From positions 1 through 64,000 of IMG/VR virus record IMGVR_UViG_3300027782_003601: a DNA stretch of 64,000 bases. One strand, 5' to 3'. The translations under genes and the position numbers were made by a program. Below, in pieces: positions 10,608-23,303 of this stretch. The notes beneath the pieces are model-generated. The model ran no database searches. It was given only the letters and a program-made list of their open reading frames with translations, and was not told the DNA's origin. Source of the stretch: a virus. Position 1 is the first letter of the stretch; each line of letters starts with the position of its first letter.

Positions 10608-11360
10608 ATGATTAAATTAAAAGACTTATTAAATCCATCAATATTAAACGAAGGAGTTGATGACCCTGGTATTCTTAAATGTGTATTTTTAGCAGGAGGA
10701 CCTGGTAGTGGTAAATCCAAAGTAGCGGGTGATTTATTTGGTATTCAAGGTATCACATCATTTTCAGCATCTGGATTTAAATTAATAAATTCCGATACTG
10801 CGTTTGAAGCACAATTGAGAAAGAGTGGTATTGACCCGAAAGATTTAGGTAAAATTGAAAAAGAGAATCCTGAATTGTGGAAAGCTATTACGGAAGACCC
10901 AAATGGACAAAGAGAACAAGGTAAAAAAATCACAAAAGCTCAGAAAGCATTTTATGAAGAAGGTAGATTGGGTATGATTGTAGATGGAACTGGTGATGAT
11001 ACTGCTAAAATCAAAAAACAAAAAGAACACGCAGAATCATTAGGATATGATACTTATATGGTTTTTGTAAATACATCATTGGAAGTTGCACAATTTCGTA
11101 ACTCAAAAAGAAGTAGAACTTTGCCAGAAGATTTAGTTACCCAAATTTGGAAAGAATGTCAGCATAATTTAGGAGCATTTCAAACTATGTTTAGTGGTAA
11201 TTTTCGTATTATTGATAATACAAAAGATGGTAACAACATAACAAAAGATATTCAAAAAGCAGTTGATGGATTTATTAGAGAAAGATTATACAATCCAATT
11301 GGTAAACAATGGATAACAACTGCAAGAGCATTGAAAAACGCAAATTTAATTAAAAAATAA
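10608..11360 (+). CDS. Zeta-toxin/AAA_33-like P-loop kinase with MIKLK leader
   Basis: LAGGPGSGKS Walker A, INSD, IVDGTG, R..KR.R lid. Confidence 0.8.
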   Translation: MIKLKDLLNPSILNEGVDDPGILKCVFLAGGPGSGKSKVAGDLFGIQGITSFSASGFKLINSDTAFEAQLRKSGIDPKDLGKIEKENPELWKAITEDPNGQREQGKKITKAQKAFYEEGRLGMIVDGTGDDTAKIKKQKEHAESLGYDTYMVFVNTSLEVAQFRNSKRSRTLPEDLVTQIWKECQHNLGAFQTMFSGNFRIIDNTKDGNNITKDIQKAVDGFIRERLYNPIGKQWITTARALKNANLIKK

Positions 11361-12097
11361 TGAAAGCAGGTAGATACGATTTAGATGAGGCATCTATGGG
11401 TAGAATATACCAGCATGTAGTTTCTAATCCTAATATGAAAAGTTGGGGAATAGTAACTGCAAGTAGAGGTAAACTAACACCTGCTGAAAACAAACAAAGA
11501 AATAAAGAGTTAGAAAACGATTTGCGTAAATTAGGTCTTGGATTTATACACGTAGATGGTATGTGGAGAGAATGTAAAGACCAAAGTATTGATTATAGTA
11601 AATGTCCGGATAATATGAAAGTACCAACGGAAGAAAAATCATACTTTGTTCCAAATGTATCCAAAAAAGATATTAATAAATTAGGTAACAAATACCAACA
11701 AGATAGTGTATTATTTGCAGATGGTGAAACAAAGGAAAAAGGTGAAGCAACTTATATTAGTGCTAACGGAAGTGAGTTCAATATAGGTAACTTTACACCT
11801 GATAAAATTTCACAGGGTTATTCTAAAATGAAAGGTGGTAAAGTATTTACTTTTTTAGAACCAGGAGATAAAGGAGAAACCCCAAAAGAAAAACCTAAAA
11901 AGGAAGAACCTAAAAAACAAGAACCCCAATCTACTGATATGAAATTAAAATCATTAGTACCAAAAGGAATTCTTGATAAAATGGTTAAGAATCCGGAAAC
12001 AGGAAATATGATTAAATTGAAATCAGCATTAAAAAAAGATAAAACATCATCTGTATATAAAACTGCAGTTGGTGTGGTAAAACAATCAAAAAAATAA
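11360..12097 (+). CDS. T3 gp0.3-like S-adenosylmethionine lyase homologue
   Basis: VTASR, EN..R, GMWRE, PTEEKS and QQDSVL align by eye with T3 SAMase motifs as recalled (VSAFR, GCYRE, PTEEKT, EQDCVL). Confidence 0.65.
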   Translation: MKAGRYDLDEASMGRIYQHVVSNPNMKSWGIVTASRGKLTPAENKQRNKELENDLRKLGLGFIHVDGMWRECKDQSIDYSKCPDNMKVPTEEKSYFVPNVSKKDINKLGNKYQQDSVLFADGETKEKGEATYISANGSEFNIGNFTPDKISQGYSKMKGGKVFTFLEPGDKGETPKEKPKKEEPKKQEPQSTDMKLKSLVPKGILDKMVKNPETGNMIKLKSALKKDKTSSVYKTAVGVVKQSKK

Positions 12098-12135
12098 AAA
12101 GTTATATATTTAATATTATAATCAAACAAAATAAA

Positions 12136-12588
12136 ATGAAAAAATTATCGTTTATAGTAGCTTTGATGCTTGGAGTAAGTATCTCTGCAAGTGCACAAGA
12201 ATGGTTTTTAACTGCTACGCGTAAGGGTGGACCATCCGATGGATATATTACAGGTGGATTTATGAAAAAAGGATGGGGATTTTATGCAGGATTACCATAC
12301 GATGAAGTTAAATCTGCAAATTCAAGTGGTATTGCAATTCCTCCTGGAGTTAATACATCTACGGGAACTATTTCACCTAATATGAAGTTTGGTGTTTTAC
12401 GTCAGTTAAAAGAGGATAAAGCAATTTTAGGATTTGGTATTCAACCAACATCTGCTGGAAACAAACCAAATGCATTTTTAATGTATAATCCATTAAGACC
12501 ATCAAATGTTTTAAATTTATGGACAATTGGTAATTTAGTAGGTAGTGATTTTACATTAGGATTAGGACTTTCGTATAAGTTAAAATAA
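12136..12588 (+). CDS. Exported beta-rich protein, possible small outer-membrane barrel
   Basis: Signal peptide ASA|Q; C-terminal LGLGLSYKLK strand. Confidence 0.65.
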   Translation: MKKLSFIVALMLGVSISASAQEWFLTATRKGGPSDGYITGGFMKKGWGFYAGLPYDEVKSANSSGIAIPPGVNTSTGTISPNMKFGVLRQLKEDKAILGFGIQPTSAGNKPNAFLMYNPLRPSNVLNLWTIGNLVGSDFTLGLGLSYKLK

Positions 12589-12974
12589 GGGGATGACTGG
12601 TTTTGACAGGAATCTTAATAAGTATAGTTGATGCAAGCAAGGTTAGATGGAAACCTTTGAAGACCTATCAAACAATAAGTGCAAACGTAGAATTATCTAC
12701 TATGACTTTCGGAGATGCTATGGCATGGATGAATTCATTTGATTACGCAGTAGCTGCCTAATCTTTCCCGTATCACTCATGGGATTTAAAAAGAAGTGAA
12801 CAGAAGTGAGGTCTCGTTTGAGGTTCTACCTATTAAAGTGAACCTCCCACAGTTGAGAGTGATAATGGCAAAATAGAAACTCTATATTTTTTCAGTTTAG
12901 AAAAATTGAATAAGCTTGTGAATGAAACATATTGGTTAATTCTTTGGACTTGGGTTCGAATCCCAACATCTCCA
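12589..12974 (+). ncRNA. ssrA: tmRNA
   Basis: 5' GGGGATG pairs with 3' CATCTCC-A including G3:U70; GAC after D-like loop; T arm GGGTTCGAATCCC; tag ORF 12681-12761 ending YAVAA*. Confidence 0.93.
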
Positions 12975-13155
12975 CAAAAAAAAATATTAGAAAAGACTTG
13001 ACATTGTTAAAAACTTTTCGTATATTTGTAATGTTGTTCAGAAGTAGGAAGCATAGATGGTGTAAGTAAACATAGCTGAAAATGTTCAACAAAAAAAATA
13101 TTAGAAAAGACTTGACATTGTTAAAAACTTTTCGTATATTTGTATCATAATAAAT

Positions 13156-13228
13156 CGCGGGGAGGATGTTGGTTTTCCCACCGGTCTCATAAGCCAGGTC
13201 TACGATAGTTCGATTCTATCTCCCGCAA
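13156..13228 (+). tRNA. tRNA-fMet(CAT), initiator-like
   Basis: C1:A72 mismatch, CGCGGGG acceptor, CTCATAA loop, GTTCGATT. Confidence 0.8.
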
Positions 13229-13292
13229 CTAAAAAGTTTTTGAAAAAAGACTTGGATATATGAAAAAAGTTTCGTATATTTGTAAAACCTTT

Positions 13293-13384
13293 AGGAATGA
13301 TTGTTGAAGCCAACATCTAATAAAACCGAATGTGTGAAGCCCAACCATAAGTGGTAAGCTATAAAGCCGGAAACAATCAATCTT
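13293..13384 (+). ncRNA. Putative small RNA with terminal stem and its own promoter
   Basis: TGATTGTT/AACAATCA closure; no ORF; lies between two promoters. Confidence 0.5.
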
Positions 13385-13540
13385 AAAAAAAATATTAGAA
13401 AAGACTTGACAATATCAAAAACTTTTCGTATATTTGTTAAACAATTTGAGACCAAAAGGTGATGAAAGATACTCGGTCAAATCAAATGAAAAACGTTCTT
13501 TAAAATATAAACACATAGTAGACTTGTTCTACATAGTGTA

Positions 13541-14338
13541 CATCGGCCGCATATGGTCGTTAAATAAACTACGAAAGTAGGATAAAGTGAACCATTTGGT
13601 TAAGTGGTTTGCGACTTCGTAAGGAGTTCGAGTATGCAAGTGGAATATCATTAGACCTGTGTAGTGAGGGTAACTCCGTAGCGAAATGGTTGAATGACTG
13701 GGCTAAGTAGAAGTTCAGTTGAGGTAGGAATACCAATAAGAATAATCCATAGAGTTAATGCAAGAAGTAAGAACTTAATCTCTTCTTATCATTGCGTGAT
13801 TCAATATTAAAGGTTGCTTAAAACCGAAAGGTATGATGAAGTACGAGTGGTGTCGTTATCATCCTTACCTACATCTCACCAAAGAGTGGGTAGTGAAGTA
13901 ATCTTAAAATATGGTGTTAGAGATAACACATTGAGTAGTTCAGTATTCTGTTGTTCAAAAGATAACGGAGCAGGTTGGCGAACCACTACTTGAAACTATC
14001 TACAAACCAAAACTCAATTTGCTATACGGTGCAAACTTAAACAAAAAGAGCAAAAGTGTTCGCCAGTTGCAAACGAAAGGTGCGTACATAGTAGGGAGAT
14101 GTTCCCTGCCACGATACCTCCGCAAGAGGTCTGTGATTCTTTCTAAAAGCTTCTAACACCGCAAGTGTGAATCTGTTCGGCAGAATAGAAGAAGTAGAGT
14201 AAAAAGAGAGTAGTTTGTAACTCAAAGAGTGGTTCACTTAAATAACCCGCATTGAATCATTACTATCCAAAAGATGGTGGAAACGTTGGGAAACAATAAT
14301 CCAACAAAAGATGGTTCGTTTATGGAGTATTCTCATCC
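13541..14338 (+). ncRNA. Large structured ncRNA, GOLLD-like (~800 nt)
   Basis: ORF-free and GC-enriched; several GNRA/GCAA hairpins; long-range pairs AAGTGAACCA/TGGTTCACTT and GTTGCAAAC/GTTTGTAAC; adjacent to phage tRNAs. Confidence 0.7.
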
Positions 14339-14351
14339 ATATCTTTTATAA

Positions 14352-14425
14352 GCGAGATTGGTGTAATGGTAGCACGCTGGCCGTCCAGGTCGGAGGAGGG
14401 GGTTCAATTCCTTTGTTTCGCTCCA
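14352..14425 (+). tRNA. Atypical tRNA-Gly(TCC) with G33/G38
   Basis: GCG acceptor, U73, encoded CCA; loop CGTCCAG. Confidence 0.75.
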
Positions 14426-14428
14426 TAA

Positions 14429-14499
14429 GCGGAATTAGTGTAATGGTAGCACAGCAGCCGTCCAGGTTGCAAGTTGGAGTTCGATTCTCTGGTCCCGCT
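14429..14499 (+). tRNA. Atypical tRNA-Gly(TCC) with G33/G38, second copy
   Basis: GCG acceptor, U73; loop CGTCCAG. Confidence 0.75.
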
Positions 14500-14501
14500 C
14501 T

Positions 14502-14524
14502 AAGTAATTAAATTACTTTTTTTT
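14502..14524 (+). terminator. Weak intrinsic terminator
   Basis: AAGTAATT/AATTACTT hairpin plus T-tract. Confidence 0.45.
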
Positions 14525-14570
14525 AACCAAAAATAAAAAAATTACATATATATTATTAAATAACAAAGAA

Positions 14571-14702
14571 ATGAAAACTTTTAACCTACATACGATTAGT
14601 TATCAACCGATGCCAACTTTGGCGTGGGGAGGCACAAATGTGTGTGATTTTAATTCAAAGAGAATTGAAATGCAGTTAGGGGCAAACATAATTTTAGAAT
14701 AA
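14571..14702 (+). CDS. Putative leader peptide (43 aa) containing all 20 amino acids
   Basis: MKTFNLHTISYQPMPTLAWGGTNVCDFNSKRIEMQLGANIILE*; A-rich start context; carries antiterminator arm at 14674-14682. Confidence 0.8.
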   Translation: MKTFNLHTISYQPMPTLAWGGTNVCDFNSKRIEMQLGANIILE

Positions 14703-14727
14703 ACAAACTAAAATATAGTAATGTAAC

Positions 14728-14764
14728 AAACCCCTAACTTAATCAGTTAGGGGTTTTTTGTTTT
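14728..14764 (+). terminator. Intrinsic terminator (attenuator) directly before the tRNA array
   Basis: AAACCCCTAACT-taatc-AGTTAGGGGTTT plus TTTGTTTT. Confidence 0.85.
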
Positions 14765-14766
14765 AA

Positions 14767-14838
14767 GTTGATGTAGCTCAGAGGCAGAGCGGGAACCTGT
14801 TAAGTTCTAGGTCGGGATATCGTAATTCTCCATCAACG
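14767..14838 (+). tRNA. tRNA-Asn(GTT), atypical T loop
   Basis: GTTGATG/CATCAAC; CTGTTAA loop; T loop ATCGTAA. Confidence 0.8.
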
Positions 14839-14846
14839 CAAGTAGA

Positions 14847-14859
14847 GTTCTTTGACATA
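14847..14859 (+). promoter_or_regulatory. boxA-like antitermination site
   Basis: GTTCTTTGACATA; variants at 13495 and 16735. Confidence 0.55.
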
Positions 14860-14860
14860 A

Positions 14861-14932
14861 GCAGGTATAGCACAACGGTTAGTGCTCTGGTCTTCCAAAC
14901 CGGAGATTTCGGTTCGAATCCGAATACCTGCT
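14861..14932 (+). tRNA. tRNA-Gly(TCC)
   Basis: Cloverleaf, CTTCCAA loop. Confidence 0.9.
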
Positions 14933-14937
14933 CATAT

Positions 14938-15012
14938 TGCCCGATGGTGTAATGGTTAGCATAACAGATTTTGATTCTGTTTGTATAGGTTCGAATCCTA
15001 TTCGGGCATCCA
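14938..15012 (+). tRNA. tRNA-Gln(TTG)
   Basis: Cloverleaf, TTTTGAT loop, CCA. Confidence 0.9.
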
Positions 15013-15015
15013 CAT

Positions 15016-15089
15016 AGAAGATTAGCTCAGTTGGTTAGAGCATTTGGTTTACATCCAAAGGGTCATAGGTTCGAATCCTATATTTTCTA
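15016..15089 (+). tRNA. tRNA-Val(TAC)
   Basis: Cloverleaf, TTTACAT loop. Confidence 0.9.
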
Positions 15090-15094
15090 CATTT

Positions 15095-15178
15095 GGGAGT
15101 TATGCACGAATTGGTTAGGCGTTAGACTGTAAATCTGGTAATCCGCATGGATAGGTGGTTCGAATCCATCAACTCTCA
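15095..15178 (+). tRNA. tRNA-Tyr(GTA)
   Basis: CTGTAAA loop, long variable arm. Confidence 0.88.
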
Positions 15179-15183
15179 CAATT

Positions 15184-15256
15184 GGAAATGTAGCTCAGCA
15201 GGTAGAGCACTAGACTGAAGATTTAGGTGTCGGTGGTTCGAACCCACCCGTTTCCA
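15184..15256 (+). tRNA. tRNA-Phe(GAA)
   Basis: CTGAAGA loop. Confidence 0.9.
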
Positions 15257-15315
15257 CATTTTTTAACAATTTAAACAATTTATACTATGGAAAGTGACAA
15301 GTATGATAAACAAAA

Positions 15316-15389
15316 GACTTCGTAGCTCAGTTGGTTAGAGCACCTCACTTTTAATGAGGGAGTCGTGAGTTCGAGTCTCACCGGGGTCA
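15316..15389 (+). tRNA. tRNA-Lys(TTT)
   Basis: CTTTTAA loop. Confidence 0.92.
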
Positions 15390-15395
15390 CAATAT

Positions 15396-15471
15396 AGGGT
15401 AGTAGAGGAGTTAGGTTTATCTCGCTTCGTTTGGGACGAAGAGCACACAGGTTCGAATCCTGTTTACCCTA
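15396..15471 (+). tRNA. tRNA-Pro(TGG)
   Basis: TTTGGGA loop. Confidence 0.88.
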
Positions 15472-15476
15472 CACAT

Positions 15477-15550
15477 AGGAATATAGCTCAACTGGTTAGA
15501 GCATTTGCCTGATACGCAGAAGGTTGTAGATTCGAGTTCTACTATTCCTA
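15477..15550 (+). tRNA. tRNA-Ile(GAT)
   Basis: CTGATAC loop. Confidence 0.88.
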
Positions 15551-15553
15551 CAT

Positions 15554-15624
15554 ATCTCTTTGGTGCAATGGTAGCATAACGGATTCCAAACCCGTAGATG
15601 AAAGTTCGAATCTTTCAGGGGGTG
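15554..15624 (+). tRNA. tRNA-Trp(CCA)
   Basis: TTCCAAA loop, G73. Confidence 0.85.
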
Positions 15625-15630
15625 CATAAT

Positions 15631-15702
15631 AGTTCCGTAGTTTAACGGATAAAATGATTGGCTACGAACCAATTGATGGGAGTTCGATTCTCTCCGGAAC
15701 TA
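15631..15702 (+). tRNA. tRNA-Arg(ACG)
   Basis: CTACGAA loop. Confidence 0.9.
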
Positions 15703-15703
15703 C

Positions 15704-15812
15704 AAAAACACAATGCTGGGTTTCCTAATAGTAACGGCGTGAACATATGTAAGTAAACTATAAGATTCTAGTAATAAGTGGAAGATGGATTCCCCACGGC
15801 TAAAGTGTTTTT
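15704..15812 (+). ncRNA. Stem-closed spacer RNA
   Basis: AAAAACAC/GTGTTTTT closure between two tRNAs. Confidence 0.5.
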
Positions 15813-15817
15813 TAATT

Positions 15818-15890
15818 GTCAGGTTGGCCGAGATGGTTTAGGTGGTGTTCTGCAAAAGCATTTACGTTGGTTCGAATCCAACACTTGACT
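15818..15890 (+). tRNA. tRNA-Cys(GCA)
   Basis: CTGCAAA loop, U73. Confidence 0.88.
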
Positions 15891-15895
15891 CAGAT

Positions 15896-15965
15896 TGCGT
15901 GACTTAGTGGAAAAGAACTTTCTCTCATAAGGAAGGTCAATTGAGTTCGAACCTCAAACACGCAA
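15896..15965 (+). tRNA. tRNA-Met(CAT), short D arm
   Basis: TGCGTG/CACGCA; CTCATAA loop; GTTCGAA. Confidence 0.7.
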
Positions 15966-15974
15966 CGATTATAT

Positions 15975-16048
15975 GGTGTTTATAGTGTTAATGGTTAGCA
16001 CGTCAGTTTGTGGTACTGATAGTATGGGTTCGAATCCCATTAAACACC
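15975..16048 (+). tRNA. tRNA-His(GTG)
   Basis: G-1:C73; TTGTGGT loop. Confidence 0.9.
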
Positions 16049-16055
16049 CCCAACT

Positions 16056-16128
16056 GTCCGTATGGTGGAATGGAAGACACGGTGGTCTTAGAAACCACTT
16101 TTTGCAGGTTCGAGTCCTGCTATGGATA
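16056..16128 (+). tRNA. tRNA-Leu(TAG) lacking the long variable arm
   Basis: CTTAGAA loop; Leu-type D arm; variable region only TTTTT. Confidence 0.82.
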
Positions 16129-16144
16129 CTTAAATTTGAATACT

Positions 16145-16600
16145 ATGATTTACAAAAGATTGAGTGATGGTAGTAAAGTTCAGTTAGATGAGTATATTAA
16201 AAAATATATGACTCAATACGAAGATGTGGATATCCTTATAGGTTGTGATTCACAGAACTTTGCAAGAGGAACGGTATATGCTATTGTAGTTGCATTATAC
16301 AGACCTGGCAAAGGTGCTCATGTTCTATTTAACAGATGGACTGCACCAAAAGAATACACTCGTTCTATCAGATTGTTAAACGAAGTATGGTATGCAATTG
16401 AAGTTGCTGAAAAGTTAAGAGAATCAGATGTACCAAAAGTAAAATGGATTGATGTAGACTTGAATCCAGACCCGAGATATAAATCAAATGAAGTGTTTAG
16501 ACAAGCAGTTGGTATGGTTGAAGGTATGGGTTATCAGGTTAGATACAAAACATTAGGTCCGATTGCAACTTATGCAGCAGACCATTTAGTAAAAATGTAA
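16145..16600 (+). CDS. RNase H-like YkuK (DUF458) family protein
   Basis: IGCDSQ, RLLNE, IDVDLN...KSN, YAAD; ATG 16145. Confidence 0.8.
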   Translation: MIYKRLSDGSKVQLDEYIKKYMTQYEDVDILIGCDSQNFARGTVYAIVVALYRPGKGAHVLFNRWTAPKEYTRSIRLLNEVWYAIEVAEKLRESDVPKVKWIDVDLNPDPRYKSNEVFRQAVGMVEGMGYQVRYKTLGPIATYAADHLVKM

Positions 16601-16762
16601 AATAATGTTAGGATATATTAAAGTTTTTTTGTATATTTGTTAAACAAAATCGGTAAAAGTATTGATTTTAAATGTAAAAAATAAAATTCAGAAAAGACTT
16701 GATTTTATCAAAAAGTTTTTGTATATTTGTATAAGTTCATTGAAATAGTGGTGATTAAAAAT

Positions 16763-16836
16763 GCTCCGTTCGTCTAATTGGTTAGGACATCCGCCTTTCA
16801 CGTGGAAGCTTACGGGTTCGAGTCCCGTACGGAGTA
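16763..16836 (+). tRNA. tRNA-Glu(TTC)
   Basis: CTTTCAC loop. Confidence 0.92.
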
Positions 16837-16838
16837 CA

Positions 16839-17029
16839 ATGTATCAAATGTGCAGTGAAAGTTAATGTAGGCATACATTAATGAGGTGGGTTCGAGTCCC
16901 GTATAATAATTCCCATCTGTAAAAAGAAGGGGGAAGCCAAGTAACTGATAACACATTATAGCCGGAGGGTTGTGCACCTTGTCTAAGAGACCCTAATAGT
17001 TCCTAATAGCTGGTATGGAACTGATACAT
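16839..17029 (+). ncRNA. Stem-closed spacer RNA containing a T-arm-like hairpin
   Basis: ATGTATCA/TGATACAT closure; GGGTTCGAGTCCC inside. Confidence 0.5.
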
Positions 17030-17033
17030 ATTT

Positions 17034-17105
17034 GCTCTCAAAGCATTGCAGGCGATGCACTTGACTTGTAATCAAGATAATTCGGTTCGATTCCGGATGA
17101 GAGCT
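17034..17105 (+). tRNA. tRNA-Thr(TGT)
   Basis: CTTGTAA loop. Confidence 0.9.
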
Positions 17106-17130
17106 CTTGGTACTTTTTTGTACCAACAAC

Positions 17131-17315
17131 AAAACAAACGAAGACTGAGGTGTAACCCCTCGGTATATAAAATCCAAAATGGTCCTGTTGAAGCCGGAAT
17201 AGTCATACAGGTCAGGAGAGAGTTACTATAAGTGGGGAGTAATTAACCCAATACGAAATGTAACCGCCAATGAAAATTGGTTATGATGTGTATAAGGACA
17301 CAATAAGTTTGTTTT
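17131..17315 (+). ncRNA. Stem-closed spacer RNA
   Basis: AAAACAAAC/GTTTGTTTT closure with internal hairpins. Confidence 0.5.
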
Positions 17316-17320
17316 ATTTA

Positions 17321-17381
17321 TGATTACTGAAATTGAATGATACGAGCCCCGAAAGTTCGAAATGAGTCAAATCAGTAATCA
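17321..17381 (+). ncRNA. Stem-closed spacer RNA
   Basis: TGATTACTGA/TCAGTAATCA 10-bp closure. Confidence 0.5.
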
Positions 17382-17386
17382 AATTT

Positions 17387-17459
17387 GGTTCATTGGTTGA
17401 ATGGTCACAATACCACCCTGTCACGGTGTGTGGTACGGGTTCGAATCCCGTATGAACCG
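17387..17459 (+). tRNA. tRNA-Asp(GTC)
   Basis: CTGTCAC loop, G73. Confidence 0.9.
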
Positions 17460-17486
17460 CAATAGTTTAATTTAAATAAATAAAAA

Positions 17487-17852
17487 ATGAAAGAAGTAGG
17501 ATTAAGCATTATGTTATTTTTCAACACTTTATTAGGTGGTGTAGACCCTGCATTATCAAATGAAAGAGATGCTATTGCAAACATTAAAAAAGAAATTAAA
17601 GTTTTGCAAAGAGAAATTGAATGGGAATCTGTAACAATAACAGATTACGCAACCCGTTGGGTAAAGATTAAAAAGATTAATGATAAGATTGACAACCTTA
17701 AAAATCAGATTAAAACAATTGAGGTTCGTGCTAAACTAAAAGAAAAGTGGGCAGCAGAAGATTCATTGGAAATTATTAAACAATATCCACCAATTGAATT
17801 GAAATTAGAGAAAACATCCGAAAGTAAAGATGATAAATCTATTAATATTTAA
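17487..17852 (+). CDS. Hypothetical coiled-coil protein with N-terminal hydrophobic segment
   Basis: ORF track. Confidence 0.7.
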   Translation: MKEVGLSIMLFFNTLLGGVDPALSNERDAIANIKKEIKVLQREIEWESVTITDYATRWVKIKKINDKIDNLKNQIKTIEVRAKLKEKWAAEDSLEIIKQYPPIELKLEKTSESKDDKSINI

Positions 17853-17864
17853 GTTATATAAAAT

Positions 17865-17937
17865 GCAACTATGATGTAATTGGATAGCATAAGACTCTTC
17901 TAAAGTTTTCGTATAGGTTCGAACCCTATTAGTTGTA
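17865..17937 (+). tRNA. tRNA-Arg(TCT)
   Basis: CTTCTAA loop. Confidence 0.88.
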
Positions 17938-18015
17938 CAAAAAAACATAGTTTTTAACAAGTTCATTTTAACAAGAATGAAATCATTCTTAATTCTATCA
18001 CTAAACAAAAAAAAT

Positions 18016-18711
18016 ATGAGATTATTAATATGTTTAATTTTAATAGTAAATACGGCATTAGCTAAACCAATCGTTACAAACTCTAAAATAGAAAAAGAAG
18101 TAGTATTAAAGTATATGGATAGTGTGGGGATAAAATATCCAGAAATAGTGTGGGCACAAGCTATTTTGGAAACCGGACATTTTCGTTCAAAAATATTCCG
18201 ATACAACAATAATATGTTTGGAATGCGTTTGGCTAGATTTAGAAAACGTACTGCAATAGGTAAACGATTTGGTTATGCTATATATTCAAGTTGGCAAGAA
18301 AGCATAATTGATTATAAATACTTTCAGAATAGATTTATAGGTAAAATTCGTAATAAAAAAGATTACTTTAAATATTTGAATAAGTATTATAGTAGTAGTA
18401 GAAGCTATTCAAAATTAGTTAAAAAAATAATGTTAACTACCACATCAGTAAAATATAAATTAAAAGGTACGGAATCTAAACCTGAAATAGATAAAGAAGT
18501 TGAATCACCAAAACCAAGAACAGGTATTGAAGTGGATAAAAATGGTGATGGTACAATGGATGGTATTGATTTTGATGGTGATGGTAAAATTGATATGTAC
18601 TTTGCGTACAGACAATTCAAACGTGTGTGGGGAGATTTTGATGGTAATGGTGAAGAAGAATGTTTAAAATTTGATAAAATTAGAGATGTGTATGCTAAAC
18701 ATTCTGGATAA
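18016..18711 (+). CDS. GH73 glucosaminidase-domain protein with DxDGDG tail
   Basis: AQAILETG...NNMFGM...YSSWQESIIDY; signal peptide from ATG 18016. Confidence 0.8.
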   Translation: MRLLICLILIVNTALAKPIVTNSKIEKEVVLKYMDSVGIKYPEIVWAQAILETGHFRSKIFRYNNNMFGMRLARFRKRTAIGKRFGYAIYSSWQESIIDYKYFQNRFIGKIRNKKDYFKYLNKYYSSSRSYSKLVKKIMLTTTSVKYKLKGTESKPEIDKEVESPKPRTGIEVDKNGDGTMDGIDFDGDGKIDMYFAYRQFKRVWGDFDGNGEEECLKFDKIRDVYAKHSG

Positions 18712-18766
18712 AATAGTTTATGAATTGGAAAGATATTACAAAATTACAAAGGTGTAGTTTTAGTTT

Positions 18767-18851
18767 GGAGGAATGGCTGAGTGGCTTAAAGCAGCAGTTT
18801 ACTAAACTGTCGTATCGTAAGGTACCTGGGGTTCGAATCCCTATTCCTCTA
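18767..18851 (+). tRNA. tRNA-Ser(ACT), rare A34 anticodon
   Basis: GGAGG acceptor; long variable arm; GCAGT-TTACTAA-ACTGT. Confidence 0.8.
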
Positions 18852-18852
18852 C

Positions 18853-18961
18853 AATGTAACGATTCGTAAGAATGACGGAACGGACGCTAAGTATGAAATG
18901 GAAACTTTTTGAAACTCGTATAAAGGAGTGAATCAGACACAAACCGTACAGACGTTACATT
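18853..18961 (+). ncRNA. Stem-closed spacer RNA
   Basis: AATGTAACG/CGTTACATT closure. Confidence 0.5.
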
Positions 18962-18966
18962 ATTTT

Positions 18967-19039
18967 GGGGATTTAGCTGAGTTGGTTTTAGCACTTGCCT
19001 TGCACGCAAGAGACATAGGTTCGAATCCTATATTCTCCA
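18967..19039 (+). tRNA. tRNA-Ala(TGC)
   Basis: G3:U70; CTTGCAC loop. Confidence 0.92.
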
Positions 19040-19078
19040 CAACACCATCTCTAATTGACATATAGGAGGAAACAACTT

Positions 19079-19333
19079 ATGGATATATTATCATTCGGTT
19101 TAGGAATTGCAGTGGTTGTGATTATTGGATTATCAGTAATTGCGGTTATTGCTTTTGTTAAGGCAAGGAAAATAGAAAAACAAATAGAGCATATAGAATC
19201 TGATATTTACAGAACAATTGGAACTGAAATAACAGAAACGCATCGTAGAATCGATGACTTTGAAAAAGATGTTTATTCTCAATTAGATTCGAGAATAGAC
19301 AAATTAGAAAATAAACTAACAACTAAAAAATAA
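19079..19333 (+). CDS. Small membrane-anchored coiled-coil protein
   Basis: N-terminal TM helix; ATG 19079. Confidence 0.75.
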   Translation: MDILSFGLGIAVVVIIGLSVIAVIAFVKARKIEKQIEHIESDIYRTIGTEITETHRRIDDFEKDVYSQLDSRIDKLENKLTTKK

Positions 19334-19358
19334 AGTTGATTAGGGGTGGTGTTAATAT

Positions 19359-19436
19359 GGACTTGTAGCTCAGTTGGTCAGTAGCAGTGCTCTCATAAAG
19401 CAAAGGTCGATGGTTCGAATCCATACTGGTCCACCA
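19359..19436 (+). tRNA. tRNA(CAT), Ile2 or elongator Met
   Basis: CTCATAA loop, CCA. Confidence 0.85.
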
Positions 19437-19573
19437 TAAAAAATCGGTTATGTATGAAGTTTTTTATAATAAATTTATAAAATAAATCAAAAAAGACTTG
19501 ACTTTGATTGCAAAATTTTGTATCTTTATTATATGTTCCGATGAGAACCAGTAAAACTTAAAATTCAAAAAAA

Positions 19574-20155
19574 ATGATAACATCTTTAATAATAGAAAAA
19601 ATAGAAGAAAAAATTAAATTACATCATAAATTATATAGATTTCCGGTAAAAGCTGAAATATGGGAAGATATATTTGACCAATGTATAAATGGAATGAATT
19701 CAAATTGGAGTGTAGGTGGGCATAGTGTTGGAGCAGATGTTATTTCGGAAAAATATGGAGTTAGATACCAAATGAAATCAGGTGAAATTAATTTAAAAAA
19801 TAATACTATAAAATGGAGTGGTCATCGTACAACAAAGCATGAAACAATTGAAGAAAAAATAAATTTTATTTCTAAAAATCATTACGATAAATATGTAATG
19901 TTAGCAAGAAATTCCAATGAATGGAAAAGAGGTATTAAAAAATATTATTTAATTACTTTTGATTCATCTTTAATAGAATATTCAAAATTAGAATGGAATG
20001 AAACTTTTTCAAAAAAAGGAAAGTTATCGGGATGGGTTGGTAAAAATAAAAATCTACCATATTCGGCAAAAATTTCATTAAGTATGTCGGGTCAATTGTG
20101 GCCGGAATCTGATATTAATTATTTGGGAACTCCAATTGAAATTACTATACAATAA
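19574..20155 (+). CDS. Putative PD-(D/E)XK endonuclease
   Basis: GADV...RYQMK resembles D-xn-QxK; coupled to a methyltransferase. Confidence 0.45.
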   Translation: MITSLIIEKIEEKIKLHHKLYRFPVKAEIWEDIFDQCINGMNSNWSVGGHSVGADVISEKYGVRYQMKSGEINLKNNTIKWSGHRTTKHETIEEKINFISKNHYDKYVMLARNSNEWKRGIKKYYLITFDSSLIEYSKLEWNETFSKKGKLSGWVGKNKNLPYSAKISLSMSGQLWPESDINYLGTPIEITIQ

Positions 20156-21183
20156 TGATAGAAAATTTTTTAAATGTAAAAAGTAGTTTAAGAAATTTAT
20201 CAGATGATGAATTTTATGAAATCTTACCAACTTTAAGTAAAGAATTAGAAAGTATTGATTTTTATCATAACTATTCTGAAAATGAATTAAAAAAAGATTG
20301 GATGAATTTGCAATATTGGAATGCTTCAATATCTGAAATAGCATCAACACAAAGGATTGGGATGAAGTTGTGTGAACAATTTTTTCCTAATTTTTATAAT
20401 ATTGAAAATAAAAAAGGAAATTCTTTTAAATCATTATGGAAAGCTGATAATTTAGAAAAAGTTTTAAAATGGAATAGAAAATCCCATACAACTCCATATC
20501 TTTCAGAATTAAAAAGAGGTATATATTTTAATTTTAGTTTGGCAAAATCAACTATGTTTAGACCTCAATTGGCAAAAATAGTTGTCAGTAATTTACAAGC
20601 AAAAAGAGTTTTAGACCCGTGTGCAGGTTGGGGTGGTAGAATGTTAGGTACGGTTTCTGCTGGTGCAACCTATGTTGCATTTGAACCAAATACGGAAACA
20701 TATAATGGTTTGGTAAAATTATCTAAATTTTTAGGTATAGATGATAAAGTTTTAATCATAAAAGATTCTGCTTTACAAATGGACAAATATGATATTGGCG
20801 AATTTGATTTGATATTAACATCACCACCGTATTTTGATTTAGAAGTTTATTCACATGAGGATACTCAATCTGTAAAGGGATGTGATTCATATCAAATGTG
20901 GGTTGATACGTTTTTGAAACCATTAATTGAATTATCTTTAATTAGATTAAAACCAAACGGATGGAGTTGTTGGAATGTTCATAATATTGGAAAAATGAAA
21001 ATGATTGAAGATGTTAAGAGTATACACATTGGATATAATGCTAATAAAATATATTCCATAACATCATCAAAAAGACAAACCAATCAAACTAATATACAAA
21101 AAAAGAATTCAGATATTACAATTTGTTATTCTAAAACTGAGCTAGAAAAAAAAGAAACTAAATTTAATAAATTTTTTGAATAA
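20155..21183 (+). CDS. Amino (N4-C/N6-A) DNA methyltransferase
   Basis: VLDPCAGWGG SAM-binding motif, TSPPY catalytic motif. Confidence 0.85.
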   Translation: MIENFLNVKSSLRNLSDDEFYEILPTLSKELESIDFYHNYSENELKKDWMNLQYWNASISEIASTQRIGMKLCEQFFPNFYNIENKKGNSFKSLWKADNLEKVLKWNRKSHTTPYLSELKRGIYFNFSLAKSTMFRPQLAKIVVSNLQAKRVLDPCAGWGGRMLGTVSAGATYVAFEPNTETYNGLVKLSKFLGIDDKVLIIKDSALQMDKYDIGEFDLILTSPPYFDLEVYSHEDTQSVKGCDSYQMWVDTFLKPLIELSLIRLKPNGWSCWNVHNIGKMKMIEDVKSIHIGYNANKIYSITSSKRQTNQTNIQKKNSDITICYSKTELEKKETKFNKFFE

Positions 21184-21222
21184 AGTTATTAAAGACTTAA
21201 AGAATTACGAAGAAGAGTAAAA

Positions 21223-21308
21223 GGAGAGTTGGCAGAGTTGGTCTATTGCACTTGTCTTGAAAACAAGAGACTGTTACAGGTCCGGGGGTTCGAATCCCTC
21301 ACTCTCCT
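21223..21308 (+). tRNA. tRNA-Ser(TGA)
   Basis: CTTGAAA loop, long variable arm. Confidence 0.9.
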
Positions 21309-21313
21309 CACAT

Positions 21314-21487
21314 TGTGGTATGGTGAAATATGATTGGCACGTGTGCTAATCCGGCAAACACTCCTTCCTGTCTCGGAGGCGGGGATAAAGAAATAGGTTA
21401 GTAATATGGGGTAGACCACCAAGCCGGCCGGCGGATGCTACTAACTGAATCTCCCTTTGCATGGTTCGAATCCTGCTACCACAGCCA
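21314..21487 (+). ncRNA. Giant tRNA-like RNA (174 nt) with D-loop and variable-arm insertions
   Basis: TGTGGTA/TACCACA-G-CCA; GGTTCGAATCC T arm; CCTTC-CTGTCTC-GGAGG arm. Confidence 0.7.
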
Positions 21488-21548
21488 TTTGGAAATATGA
21501 AATATTTTTCGTATATTTGTTAAAAGAAACAATAATAAGAATTAAATT

Positions 21549-21809
21549 ATGGCAGAATTTAGTAAACAATATTGTGAGATTCACGACCCAGAAATGCCTT
21601 GGGATTTTGATATTGAAGAAATTGCAACAGAAATACCAAGAGGATATTACAAATCAATCATATGTGAAGGATTTGGTTTCGTTGGTATTGGGGTTGGAAT
21701 GAATGGTGATATACAATTACTATTCGCAGATAAAATTGGTGATGAATTTGACAAAGTAAATTACAATCACTTCATCAAAAAACAAAAAGAATCAACGGAT
21801 GGAATCTAA
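21549..21809 (+). CDS. Hypothetical protein
   Basis: ORF after promoter. Confidence 0.75.
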   Translation: MAEFSKQYCEIHDPEMPWDFDIEEIATEIPRGYYKSIICEGFGFVGIGVGMNGDIQLLFADKIGDEFDKVNYNHFIKKQKESTDGI

Positions 21810-21999
21810 AAAAGAACAACATTTAGAGTTGATGGATAGAATACATATAGCATCAATTAATTTAGATGACCACATTTTAAATCACCCTATTTCATTGGAA
21901 AATTCAGATGTAAAATATCATTTAGAATTAGCATTGGATAATTTATTAATAGCATACTCAAACTTAGGTTATATATCAGATGAAAATAACTCACATTAG
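21799..21999 (+). CDS. Hypothetical protein
   Basis: ORF track, translationally coupled. Confidence 0.65.
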   Translation: MESKKEQHLELMDRIHIASINLDDHILNHPISLENSDVKYHLELALDNLLIAYSNLGYISDENNSH

Positions 22000-22735
22000 T
22001 GATACACACAATCACCACTCAAAACTTCAAGAAGACCTGCCAGGTGGAGACCTTTTAATCCATAGTGGTGATTTTACATCCATTGGTAGAAGGTCTGAAA
22101 TTGAACGATTTATCAAATGGTTCAACAAAATAGATAACTACACAAACAAAGTATTTATCGCAGGTAATCACGACTTAACATTTGAATCGGAAGTATTACA
22201 ACGTAAGAAAGCAGATTGGTTTGATGGACCTAAAGTGTATGAAGAACCTGCTGATGAAGCAAAACCACAATGGTTATGTGAATTGTTGGAAGTTGGATTA
22301 GCAGGTGGTGTATTCTATTTGGAAAACGAAAGCATTACACTAGCTGGCGTAAAGATTTGGGGTTCTCCTTTCTCTCCTACATTTGGTAGAGATTGGGCAT
22401 TCAATGTAAACAGAGGAGCAGATTCAATCCAAATGTGGAATCAAATACCAGAGGATACCGATATTGTAATTACTCACGGACCTATGTATGGAGCATTAGA
22501 TGTAGCATATAATAGTGGATTGCCAGTTGGATGTGAAGACCTTTACAATAGATTACAGGTTGTAAAACCACATCTACACTTTTGTGGACACGTTCACGAA
22601 GGTTATGGGTATAAGCAAGTAGGTGATATGTATTCCTTTAATGGTGCATCCGTATCATTGGAATATCAATATAAAAACAAACCAATTACTTTTGATTATA
22701 ATTTTAATACAAAAGATATAAACTTTTTAATGTAA
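21980..22735 (+). CDS. Metallophosphoesterase (MPPED-like)
   Basis: SDTH, HSGD, AGNHD, THGP, GHVHE. Confidence 0.9.
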   Translation: MKITHISDTHNHHSKLQEDLPGGDLLIHSGDFTSIGRRSEIERFIKWFNKIDNYTNKVFIAGNHDLTFESEVLQRKKADWFDGPKVYEEPADEAKPQWLCELLEVGLAGGVFYLENESITLAGVKIWGSPFSPTFGRDWAFNVNRGADSIQMWNQIPEDTDIVITHGPMYGALDVAYNSGLPVGCEDLYNRLQVVKPHLHFCGHVHEGYGYKQVGDMYSFNGASVSLEYQYKNKPITFDYNFNTKDINFLM

Positions 22736-22736
22736 T

Positions 22737-23303
22737 ATGACAACACGATACAGAATATGGGAATTTATTAGATATGGTATCCTAAGATTTTTTACAAACA
22801 TTTGGAGATTCCGCAGGGAATTATACAACCATCAATGGTGGGATTATCATTATACATTGGAGATGATTCATCGTTCTTTATCTATTATGGTTGTTAAATT
22901 AGAGAAGGATGGGATTGAAGAAAATATCAGTAGAGGTAAGAAAGTTGCTAAAATTAAAAGAGCAATTCAATTATTAGACAATCGTTTGAATGATACTTAT
23001 ATTGAACAAGCAGAAGCAGAATTCGGTAAATTGCATTTGAAGCCATTGGAGTCTGAAGATTTAGGAAATGGGACTAGTAGATTATTGGATACCAACACCA
23101 AAGAAGAAAACGAACATAACAAAAGAGTATTCAAATTAGCATCTACAATAGATGATAGAGAATGGAGAGAGTTGTGGAATATCTTTAAAGGACAATCTAT
23201 TTTAGATTATGAGAAATATTTTAAAACAATACCAAAAGAAGAACAAGCAGATGGGTGGAACAACTGGTACAATGGTTCTGATATGAGGGGGTGGTGGGAT
23301 TAA
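22737..23303 (+). CDS. Hypothetical phage protein
   Basis: Trp-rich, ends RGWWD. Confidence 0.75.
   Translation: MTTRYRIWEFIRYGILRFFTNIWRFRRELYNHQWWDYHYTLEMIHRSLSIMVVKLEKDGIEENISRGKKVAKIKRAIQLLDNRLNDTYIEQAEAEFGKLHLKPLESEDLGNGTSRLLDTNTKEENEHNKRVFKLASTIDDREWRELWNIFKGQSILDYEKYFKTIPKEEQADGWNNWYNGSDMRGWWD

Follow-up and report, generated by a model that had tools for sequence, protein, structure and literature searches.

A candidate leader-peptide attenuator with an amino-acid-complete leader at the head of the tRNA array of a freshwater giant phage

The DNA analysed here, called the window throughout, comprises positions 1 to 64,000 of an IMG/VR virus record of 176 kb (31% GC, ~92% complete) from a freshwater giant phage. 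The features of the locus are collated in Table 1. A tmRNA gene, the tag of which comprises 26 residues with YAVAA at the end, is located directly 5′ of the GOLLD/tRNA region, and genes for an AAA_33/Zeta-toxin-like kinase (10608–11360) and for an S-adenosylmethionine lyase family protein (PF23780, 11360–12097) are found just 5′ of the RNA gene cluster. The tmRNA is followed by GOLLD RNA, two weak tRNA-Gly-like genes, a short leader open reading frame (ORF), an intrinsic-terminator-like hairpin and a long tRNA array.

Table 1. Features of the leader locus and its surroundings (positions in the window).
Feature	Position	Strand	Remarks
tmRNA	12589–12977	+	Rfam 90.8 bits
Near-consensus TTGACA-17-TATATT word, three copies	12998, 13112, 13406	+	ORF-free stretch 12998–13434 in the tmRNA–GOLLD interval
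GOLLD RNA, full length	13545–14339	+	Rfam RF02032, 296.6 bits over 13931–14339
Two weak tandem tRNA-Gly(TCC)-like genes	14352–14500	+	tRNA scores 37–38 bits; between GOLLD and leader
AT-rich region, presumed promoter and short SD-less 5′ UTR	14529–14570	+	−10-like TATATT at 14549–14554; inference only
Leader ORF, 43 codons and TAA	14571–14702	+	all 20 amino acids by codon 33; homologous ORFs in 47 variants
R1 CTTTTAAC, codons 3–5, candidate anti-antiterminator	14578–14585	+	pairs with R2
R2 AGTTAGGGG, codons 35–38, putative antiterminator arm	14674–14682	+	exact copy of terminator 3′ arm; covaries with R3
Terminator 5′ arm	14728–14739	+	R3 core CCCCTAACT at 14731–14739
Terminator 3′ arm	14745–14756	+	R4 core AGTTAGGGG at 14745–14753
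Intrinsic-terminator T-run	14754–14764	+	first three T also close the stem; ends 2 nt short of first tRNA
tRNA-Asn (GTT), first putatively gated gene	14767–14838	+	Rfam tRNA 48.8 bits
Remaining tRNA array, 21 ARAGORN tRNAs	14861–21309	+	RNaseH_like/YkuK gene (16130–16600) and other ORFs interspersed

Two huge-phage records, LR756502 and LR745206, match the 5′ half of the GOLLD RNA (from ~13545) by blastn. Contigs over GOLLD positions 13564–14314 from four freshwater metatranscriptome runs had depths of 1e2–1e4, versus ~10 in the flanks, and some of the RNA contigs that covered GOLLD were without any difference from the window; in view of this depth, the RNA appears to reach high abundance or to be highly stable in nature. 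An RNA-library contig of one relative connects position 14343 with position 14520, so some relatives lack both tRNA-Gly-like genes. Another, from a relative with ~92% identity, runs from 14518 to 14790 and thus spans the leader, the terminator and the start of tRNA-Asn; it may reflect read-through or DNA carry-over. The metatranscriptome data consist of contigs only, with small word shares, and do not allow 3′ ends at the terminator to be mapped or expression there to be quantified.

The 43-codon ORF and the peptide that the sequence-only reading had derived from it were both recovered. Its statement that all 20 amino acids occur within codons 1–33 holds, the set in fact being contained already in residues 7–33. 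The probability of 20 kinds in 33 codons, the calculation of which had been proposed, was 2.4e-4 to 9e-4 for this genome alone (2.4e-4 under the amino acid usage of the phage, ~8e-4 for random sequence of local composition). The leader is the genome's extreme for amino acid coverage among the six-frame ORFs of at least 30 aa (n=1114); given so many ORFs, a single 20/20 ORF is by itself marginal, and its significance comes from the relatives. The uncommon codons ascribed to the leader are likewise real: eight rare codons were counted, versus 3.0 expected (P=0.007), and GC3 is 35% in the leader versus 16% genome-wide. The last new residue of this leader is Glu33, two codons 5′ of R2. Because of this closeness, a ribosome stalled at Glu would probably mask R2, and Glu33 is not usable as a sensor codon.

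No SD motif precedes the leader. An SD-like 4-mer was found upstream of only 8 of the 159 ORFs of at least 100 aa in the whole genome, and upstream regions are A-rich; the phage thus rarely uses SD motifs, and the SD-less, A-rich start of the leader is normal for it. The scarcity of SD motifs, together with the A-rich upstream regions, suggests that initiation does not depend on SD motifs, as in Bacteroidota hosts; the phage's own host is unidentified. With regard to the promoter, a TAYWTAT(A)-like word is located 4–20 nt before the ATG in all 30 relatives for which DNA was available. No convincing −35 element was found for the leader, a scan with a sigma-70-type consensus did not score above its shuffles, and no TAnnTTTG motif is visible. 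Internal promoters near 16610–16730, inferred in the sequence-only reading, could not be confirmed: a single 9-of-12 consensus match was all that was obtained, with the scan again not above shuffles.

The first tRNA of the array, tRNA-Asn, begins where it had been placed; it is recognised by Rfam and is not called by ARAGORN in this window, and ARAGORN does call a tRNA-Asn(gtt) at the corresponding place in relatives. Once it is included, the array serves all 20 amino acids, as had been claimed. Where at least 5 kb of downstream sequence was available, nearly all arrays comprise 21–25 tRNAs and serve all 20 amino acids. Four ARAGORN lists contain 19 kinds; the program also misses the window's own tRNA-Asn. 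The tRNA-Ser at 18767–18852 was assigned the anticodon ACT by ARAGORN, and the corresponding gene in relatives has GCT.

Relatives were sought by means of two neighbouring proteins (RNaseH_like/YkuK, 16130–16600, and the ORF at 12136–12588), a degenerate DNA pattern and a profile search that covered 1.84 billion representative proteins. The resulting family set comprises 30 distinct DNA instances (from IMG/VR, JGI, ENA and Logan contigs) and 47 distinct leader peptides. Of 18 matches from a pattern scan of genome contigs, 17 were rejected as chance; the sole true member (L098) lies on a 1.6-kb contig binned with Cyanobium, which was discarded as unreliable host evidence. Searches of GenBank phages with blastn and tblastn found no relative of the leader, so neither a cultured model nor a host is at hand. 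The family is nevertheless widespread in freshwater metagenomes, with 32 clusters at 50% identity and one member occurring in 73 index blocks.

All 30 DNA instances share a common plan, namely an SD-less A-rich stretch, ATG, leader ORF, stop codon, spacer, terminator and tRNA genes. The ORF is 35–55 codons long with an N terminus of the form MKTL.LHT, and start, frame and stop are retained through the indels that account for this range. The spacer between stop codon and terminator measures 22–31 nt in 30/30 instances, the terminators consist of a GC-cored hairpin of 10–14 bp followed by a T-run, and the first tRNA thereafter is usually tRNA-Asn(GTT). The upstream context varies (GOLLD or a tRNA in some members, a hairpin or the end of a protein-coding gene in others), which identifies the module itself as the conserved unit.

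A lack of conservation in relatives had been named beforehand as a refuting outcome, and the ORF passed this check: although the leader peptides are only 23–56% identical across the family, 39 of the 47 distinct variants (35–55 aa) contain all 20 amino acids. The expected number of complete peptides was 0.37 with the composition of the phage proteome and 1.3 with the family's pooled composition. Some leaders complete the set in 38–40 residues and one does so within 28. When the columns of the alignment were shuffled, 9.4±2.4 peptides were complete, with a maximum of 18 in 2000 shuffles. When evolution was simulated on the phylogeny of the family with a 20/20 peptide at the root, 3.8 tips were complete under pooled frequencies and 9.9 under column-specific ones; none of 1000 runs gave more than 24. 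The leader sequences are related and the counts hence not independent, a kinship for which the tree simulation corrects only roughly.

How the set is kept complete can be followed in the alignment. Cysteine, at 0.6% of the proteome, is nevertheless found in 45/47 leaders and occupies nine alignment columns; shifts of position between members are also seen for Tyr, Phe, Asp, Arg and internal Met. Residues present as a sole copy change half as often as those present in several copies (19.6% vs 41.9%). The 20-kind set is complete 5′ of R2 in 23 of the 24 complete DNA instances. The peptide as such evolves fast, with near-equal numbers of variable sites at codon positions 1, 2 and 3; M1, H7 and G21 are invariant, and P13 and W19 nearly so. 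Among single-base changes, synonymous ones make up a larger share in the frame of the ORF (37% and 55%) than in the other frames (10–32%). Completeness is not universal: 8/47 members are without one to three amino acids. In four close relatives Glu alone is missing, through the exchange E33K at the same Glu33, with tRNA-Glu retained in their arrays; among more divergent members, six are without one to three kinds. No association was found between leaders without Glu and arrays without tRNA-Glu. Completeness, moving positions, retention of sole copies and the in-frame synonymous excess together suggest that the frame is read, and that the amino acid set is conserved rather than the peptide sequence. 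On the strength of this comparison between family members, the leader ORF and its 20/20 content are demonstrably under selection.

Codons that end in G are doubled across the family (259 vs 129 expected). Decoding of such codons relies mostly on wobble by tRNAs with U34, of which the array contains examples; the excess may sharpen sensitivity, or may serve RNA structure. The match of leader codons to the anticodons of the array is only modestly raised (80.6% vs 72.8% expected) and was not relied on.

At the RNA level, the 9-nt identity between the end of the ORF and the terminator that had been pointed out is exact: AGTTAGGGG occurs as R2 and as the core of R4, with its complement CCCCTAACT as the core of R3. 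Only two other exact copies of this 9-mer are present in the 64-kb window. The proposed terminator is also in place and is the strongest terminator-like site in the 12–22 kb region; it has a stem of 12 bp with the T-run, and a terminator between leader ORF and tRNAs recurs with covariation in 30/30 DNA instances. In the R3:R4 pairing, 96.7% of the cells are paired, and four pairs show two-sided changes.

All relatives carry R2, always in the same codon frame (xxG TTA NNG Gxx) and 6–28 nt 5′ of the stop codon, and in every instance it is complementary to the 5′ arm of the terminator across a gap of 44–61 nt. An initial alignment (A2) put R2 of short and of long forms into different columns and was for this reason replaced by an alignment in register (A3). 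In A3, seven core pairs of R2:R3 are 96–100% paired, and two-sided GC-to-AU changes are present at two positions, in four and eight sequences. This covariation score was matched by 0/500 shuffles, and slid registers collapse. At one covarying position, R2:R3 has eight AU pairs, whereas the terminator (R3:R4) has three UA pairs and six UG pairs; R2 compensates more faithfully than R4 and so tracks R3 in its own right, rather than being a mere copy of R4. Duplexes of R2 with its own R3 had a mean energy of −13.68 kcal/mol, against −11.48±0.35 kcal/mol for permuted partners. The codons in R2 alternate freely between Gly, Glu and Arg with the pairing to R3 kept, which places the constraint on the RNA. 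By alignment and pairing statistics, R2:R3 and R3:R4 covary, in line with the check for covarying antiterminator and terminator arms that had been proposed.

R1 can form a duplex of 7–10 bp with R2 in 30/30 DNA instances (−5.8 to −11.5 kcal/mol). Partner specificity is modest (self −8.70 vs permuted −7.79±0.27 kcal/mol, P=6e-4), as is covariation, and the duplex is weaker than R2:R3 (mean −8.7 vs −13.7 kcal/mol). When folding was computed before R4 exists, R2 paired with R3 in 29/30 members; in full-length folding, the terminator together with R1:R2 was the MFE structure in 26/30 members, and the full-length MFE structure of the present leader includes R1:R2. The leader RNA folds better than its shuffles (z=−2.9 without and −5.1 with the terminator), and the GC content of the leader region is elevated. 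In one divergent member (L084:1501–1701, MQTLILHT...), a T in R2 mismatches R3 and is matched by an A in R1, so that in this lineage compensation is seen in R1:R2 rather than in R2:R3. R1 to R4 constitute the four-region layout of classical attenuators.

From these observations it is considered probable that the locus is a ribosome-mediated leader-peptide transcription attenuator that heads the tRNA array, with an amino-acid-complete leader that gauges the decoding of all amino acids. Translation, termination, promoter and response sign are inferences, and direct evidence is lacking for translation, termination and regulated read-through alike. The attenuator interpretation of the sequence-only reading gains support from the conservation of ORF and arms in relatives, a support that does not extend to its scenario of anticodon nucleases or to the sign of the response.

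The proposed mechanism would operate as follows: Transcription would begin in the AT-rich region before 14571, and a ribosome would translate the 43-codon leader while RNA polymerase advances. If decoding is fast, the ribosome would be on or just past R2, or at the stop codon between R2 and R3, as R3 emerges; R3 and R4 would then pair, and transcription would end at 14764, 2 nt before tRNA-Asn. If no ribosome has loaded, R1 would hold R2, and the terminator would also form. A ribosome lagging at any hungry codon 5′ of R2 would leave R2 free to capture R3 in the stronger duplex, the terminator would be blocked, and the polymerase would enter the tRNA array, the products of which would relieve the shortage in a negative feedback loop. 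The model requires the amino acid set to be finished before R2, which agrees with the position of the set reported above. Two points of geometry complicate the scheme. A ribosome that has reached the stop codon is positioned between R2 and R3 and leaves R2 uncovered, so masking would have to be partly steric; in addition, stalls at codons ~12–31 leave R1 free 5′ of the ribosome, where renewed pairing with R2 is possible in principle. The more specific notion of a pan-amino-acid gauge of decoding speed, in which one ribosome run over about one codon per amino acid decides on transcription of the full tRNA set, is held with only slightly more confidence than doubt.

The same elements could also form a translation-coupled switch with another input or sign, in which read-through needs translation because the ribosome melts R1:R2. 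Such a switch would report ribosome availability or initiation capacity rather than a shortage of aminoacyl-tRNA, and stalls would be irrelevant or would favour termination. The placement of R1 at codons 3–5, where an initiating ribosome would mask it, fits this arrangement, as do the preference for R2:R3 before R4 is made (29/30 members), the fact that a terminating ribosome leaves R2 uncovered, and the RNA-library contig that bridges leader and tRNA. It leaves unexplained, however, why all 20 amino acids are maintained and why the set is completed 5′ of R2 (23/24), and it offers no reason for the two-fold excess of G-ending codons; it is regarded as rather unlikely, without being dismissed.

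Two further explanations were weighed. If the ORF merely encoded a conserved small phage protein and were followed by an ordinary terminator, with the tRNA array served by its own promoter or by leaky read-through, the conservation of the ORF, including its invariant (M1, H7, G21) and nearly invariant residues (P13, W19), the strength of the terminator and the incompleteness of 8/47 members would all be accommodated. The T-run, however, ends 2 nt before the tRNA and so leaves no room for a promoter, and R2 varies between Gly, Glu and Arg yet stays complementary to R3 over a gap of 44–61 nt. The peptide, moreover, evolves fast and still retains every amino acid, the conserved residues being mostly the rare ones present as a sole copy, so that this explanation appears very improbable. 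Conversely, a switch that works through RNA alone (a riboswitch, or a tRNA- or protein-binding RNA) and in which the open frame is incidental would be in keeping with the better-than-shuffled folding of the leader and its elevated GC content. Against it stand the retention of start, frame and stop through indels (35 to 55 codons), the synonymous excess in frame and an amino acid completeness for which there is no explanation at the RNA level. No Rfam family, T-box included, was matched at E≤1 either: in a scan of 11000–23000 at this threshold, neither a T-box (RF00230) nor another cis-regulatory match was obtained at 14500–14766. An RNA-only switch is thus scarcely credible, and the ribosome-mediated attenuator remains the preferred reading.

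Leader-peptide attenuation is known for amino acid biosynthesis, for a synthetase and for resistance genes, with one or a few amino acids sensed; the enterobacterial examples include trpL, hisL, pheL, leuL and thrL as well as the multivalent ilvGMEDA leader. The phage element resembles trp/his/ilv-type leaders in its short leader ORF (the translation of which is inferred), in its 1:2, 2:3 and 3:4 regions and in a terminator directly before the genes; as in trp-type leaders, the position of the ribosome is expected to choose between antiterminator and terminator. Sensing of more than one amino acid is itself not without precedent, as the ilv and thr leaders already do so. Unlike trp-type leaders, however, the phage leader has no runs of a single codon and contains each of the 20 amino acids about once; the element is viral, and it would regulate tRNA genes instead of genes for biosynthetic enzymes. 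R2 is contained in the ORF, and the stop codon separates R2 from R3, whereas in trp it lies between regions 1 and 2, and the phage's host appears to be SD-poor, in contrast to the hosts of enterobacterial attenuators. The match between regulatory codons and regulated genes that marks such leaders is present in modified form, with a 20/20 leader (39/47 variants) and an array that serves all 20 amino acids.

Two other systems invite comparison. The pheST leader of E. coli is likewise a leader-peptide attenuator placed on a component of the translation apparatus and reads the supply of charged tRNA, but it responds to a single amino acid through Phe codons and controls a synthetase rather than tRNA genes. 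T-box riboswitches share with the phage element a terminator/antiterminator switch tied to tRNA status and to translation-related genes; they bind one uncharged tRNA directly and are untranslated, whereas the phage ORF is conserved as an ORF. A full-text search of the literature found no leader peptide or attenuator before phage tRNA genes, by which absence is not proven. Judged by structure and sequence alone, the locus appears to meet the structural criteria of trp-type attenuator logic, from which its sensor (all 20 amino acids), its target (tRNA genes) and the position of its stop codon set it apart.

Attenuator logic would thus apparently be extended to 20 amino acids and to viral tRNA genes, which provides a testable answer to the question of how the tRNA arrays of large phages are regulated. 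Selection for a pangram peptide is unusual; function resides in which codons are present and not in the peptide. If the gauge is real, no attenuator known before would have controlled tRNA genes or sensed all amino acids, and a shortage of any host tRNA or charged amino acid would switch on the phage tRNAs, with host shut-off, starvation or tRNA-cleaving defence nucleases as possible triggers. If verified, the leader would constitute a compact natural reporter of global decoding capacity, and phage tRNA arrays would be linked to the sensing of damage to host translation.
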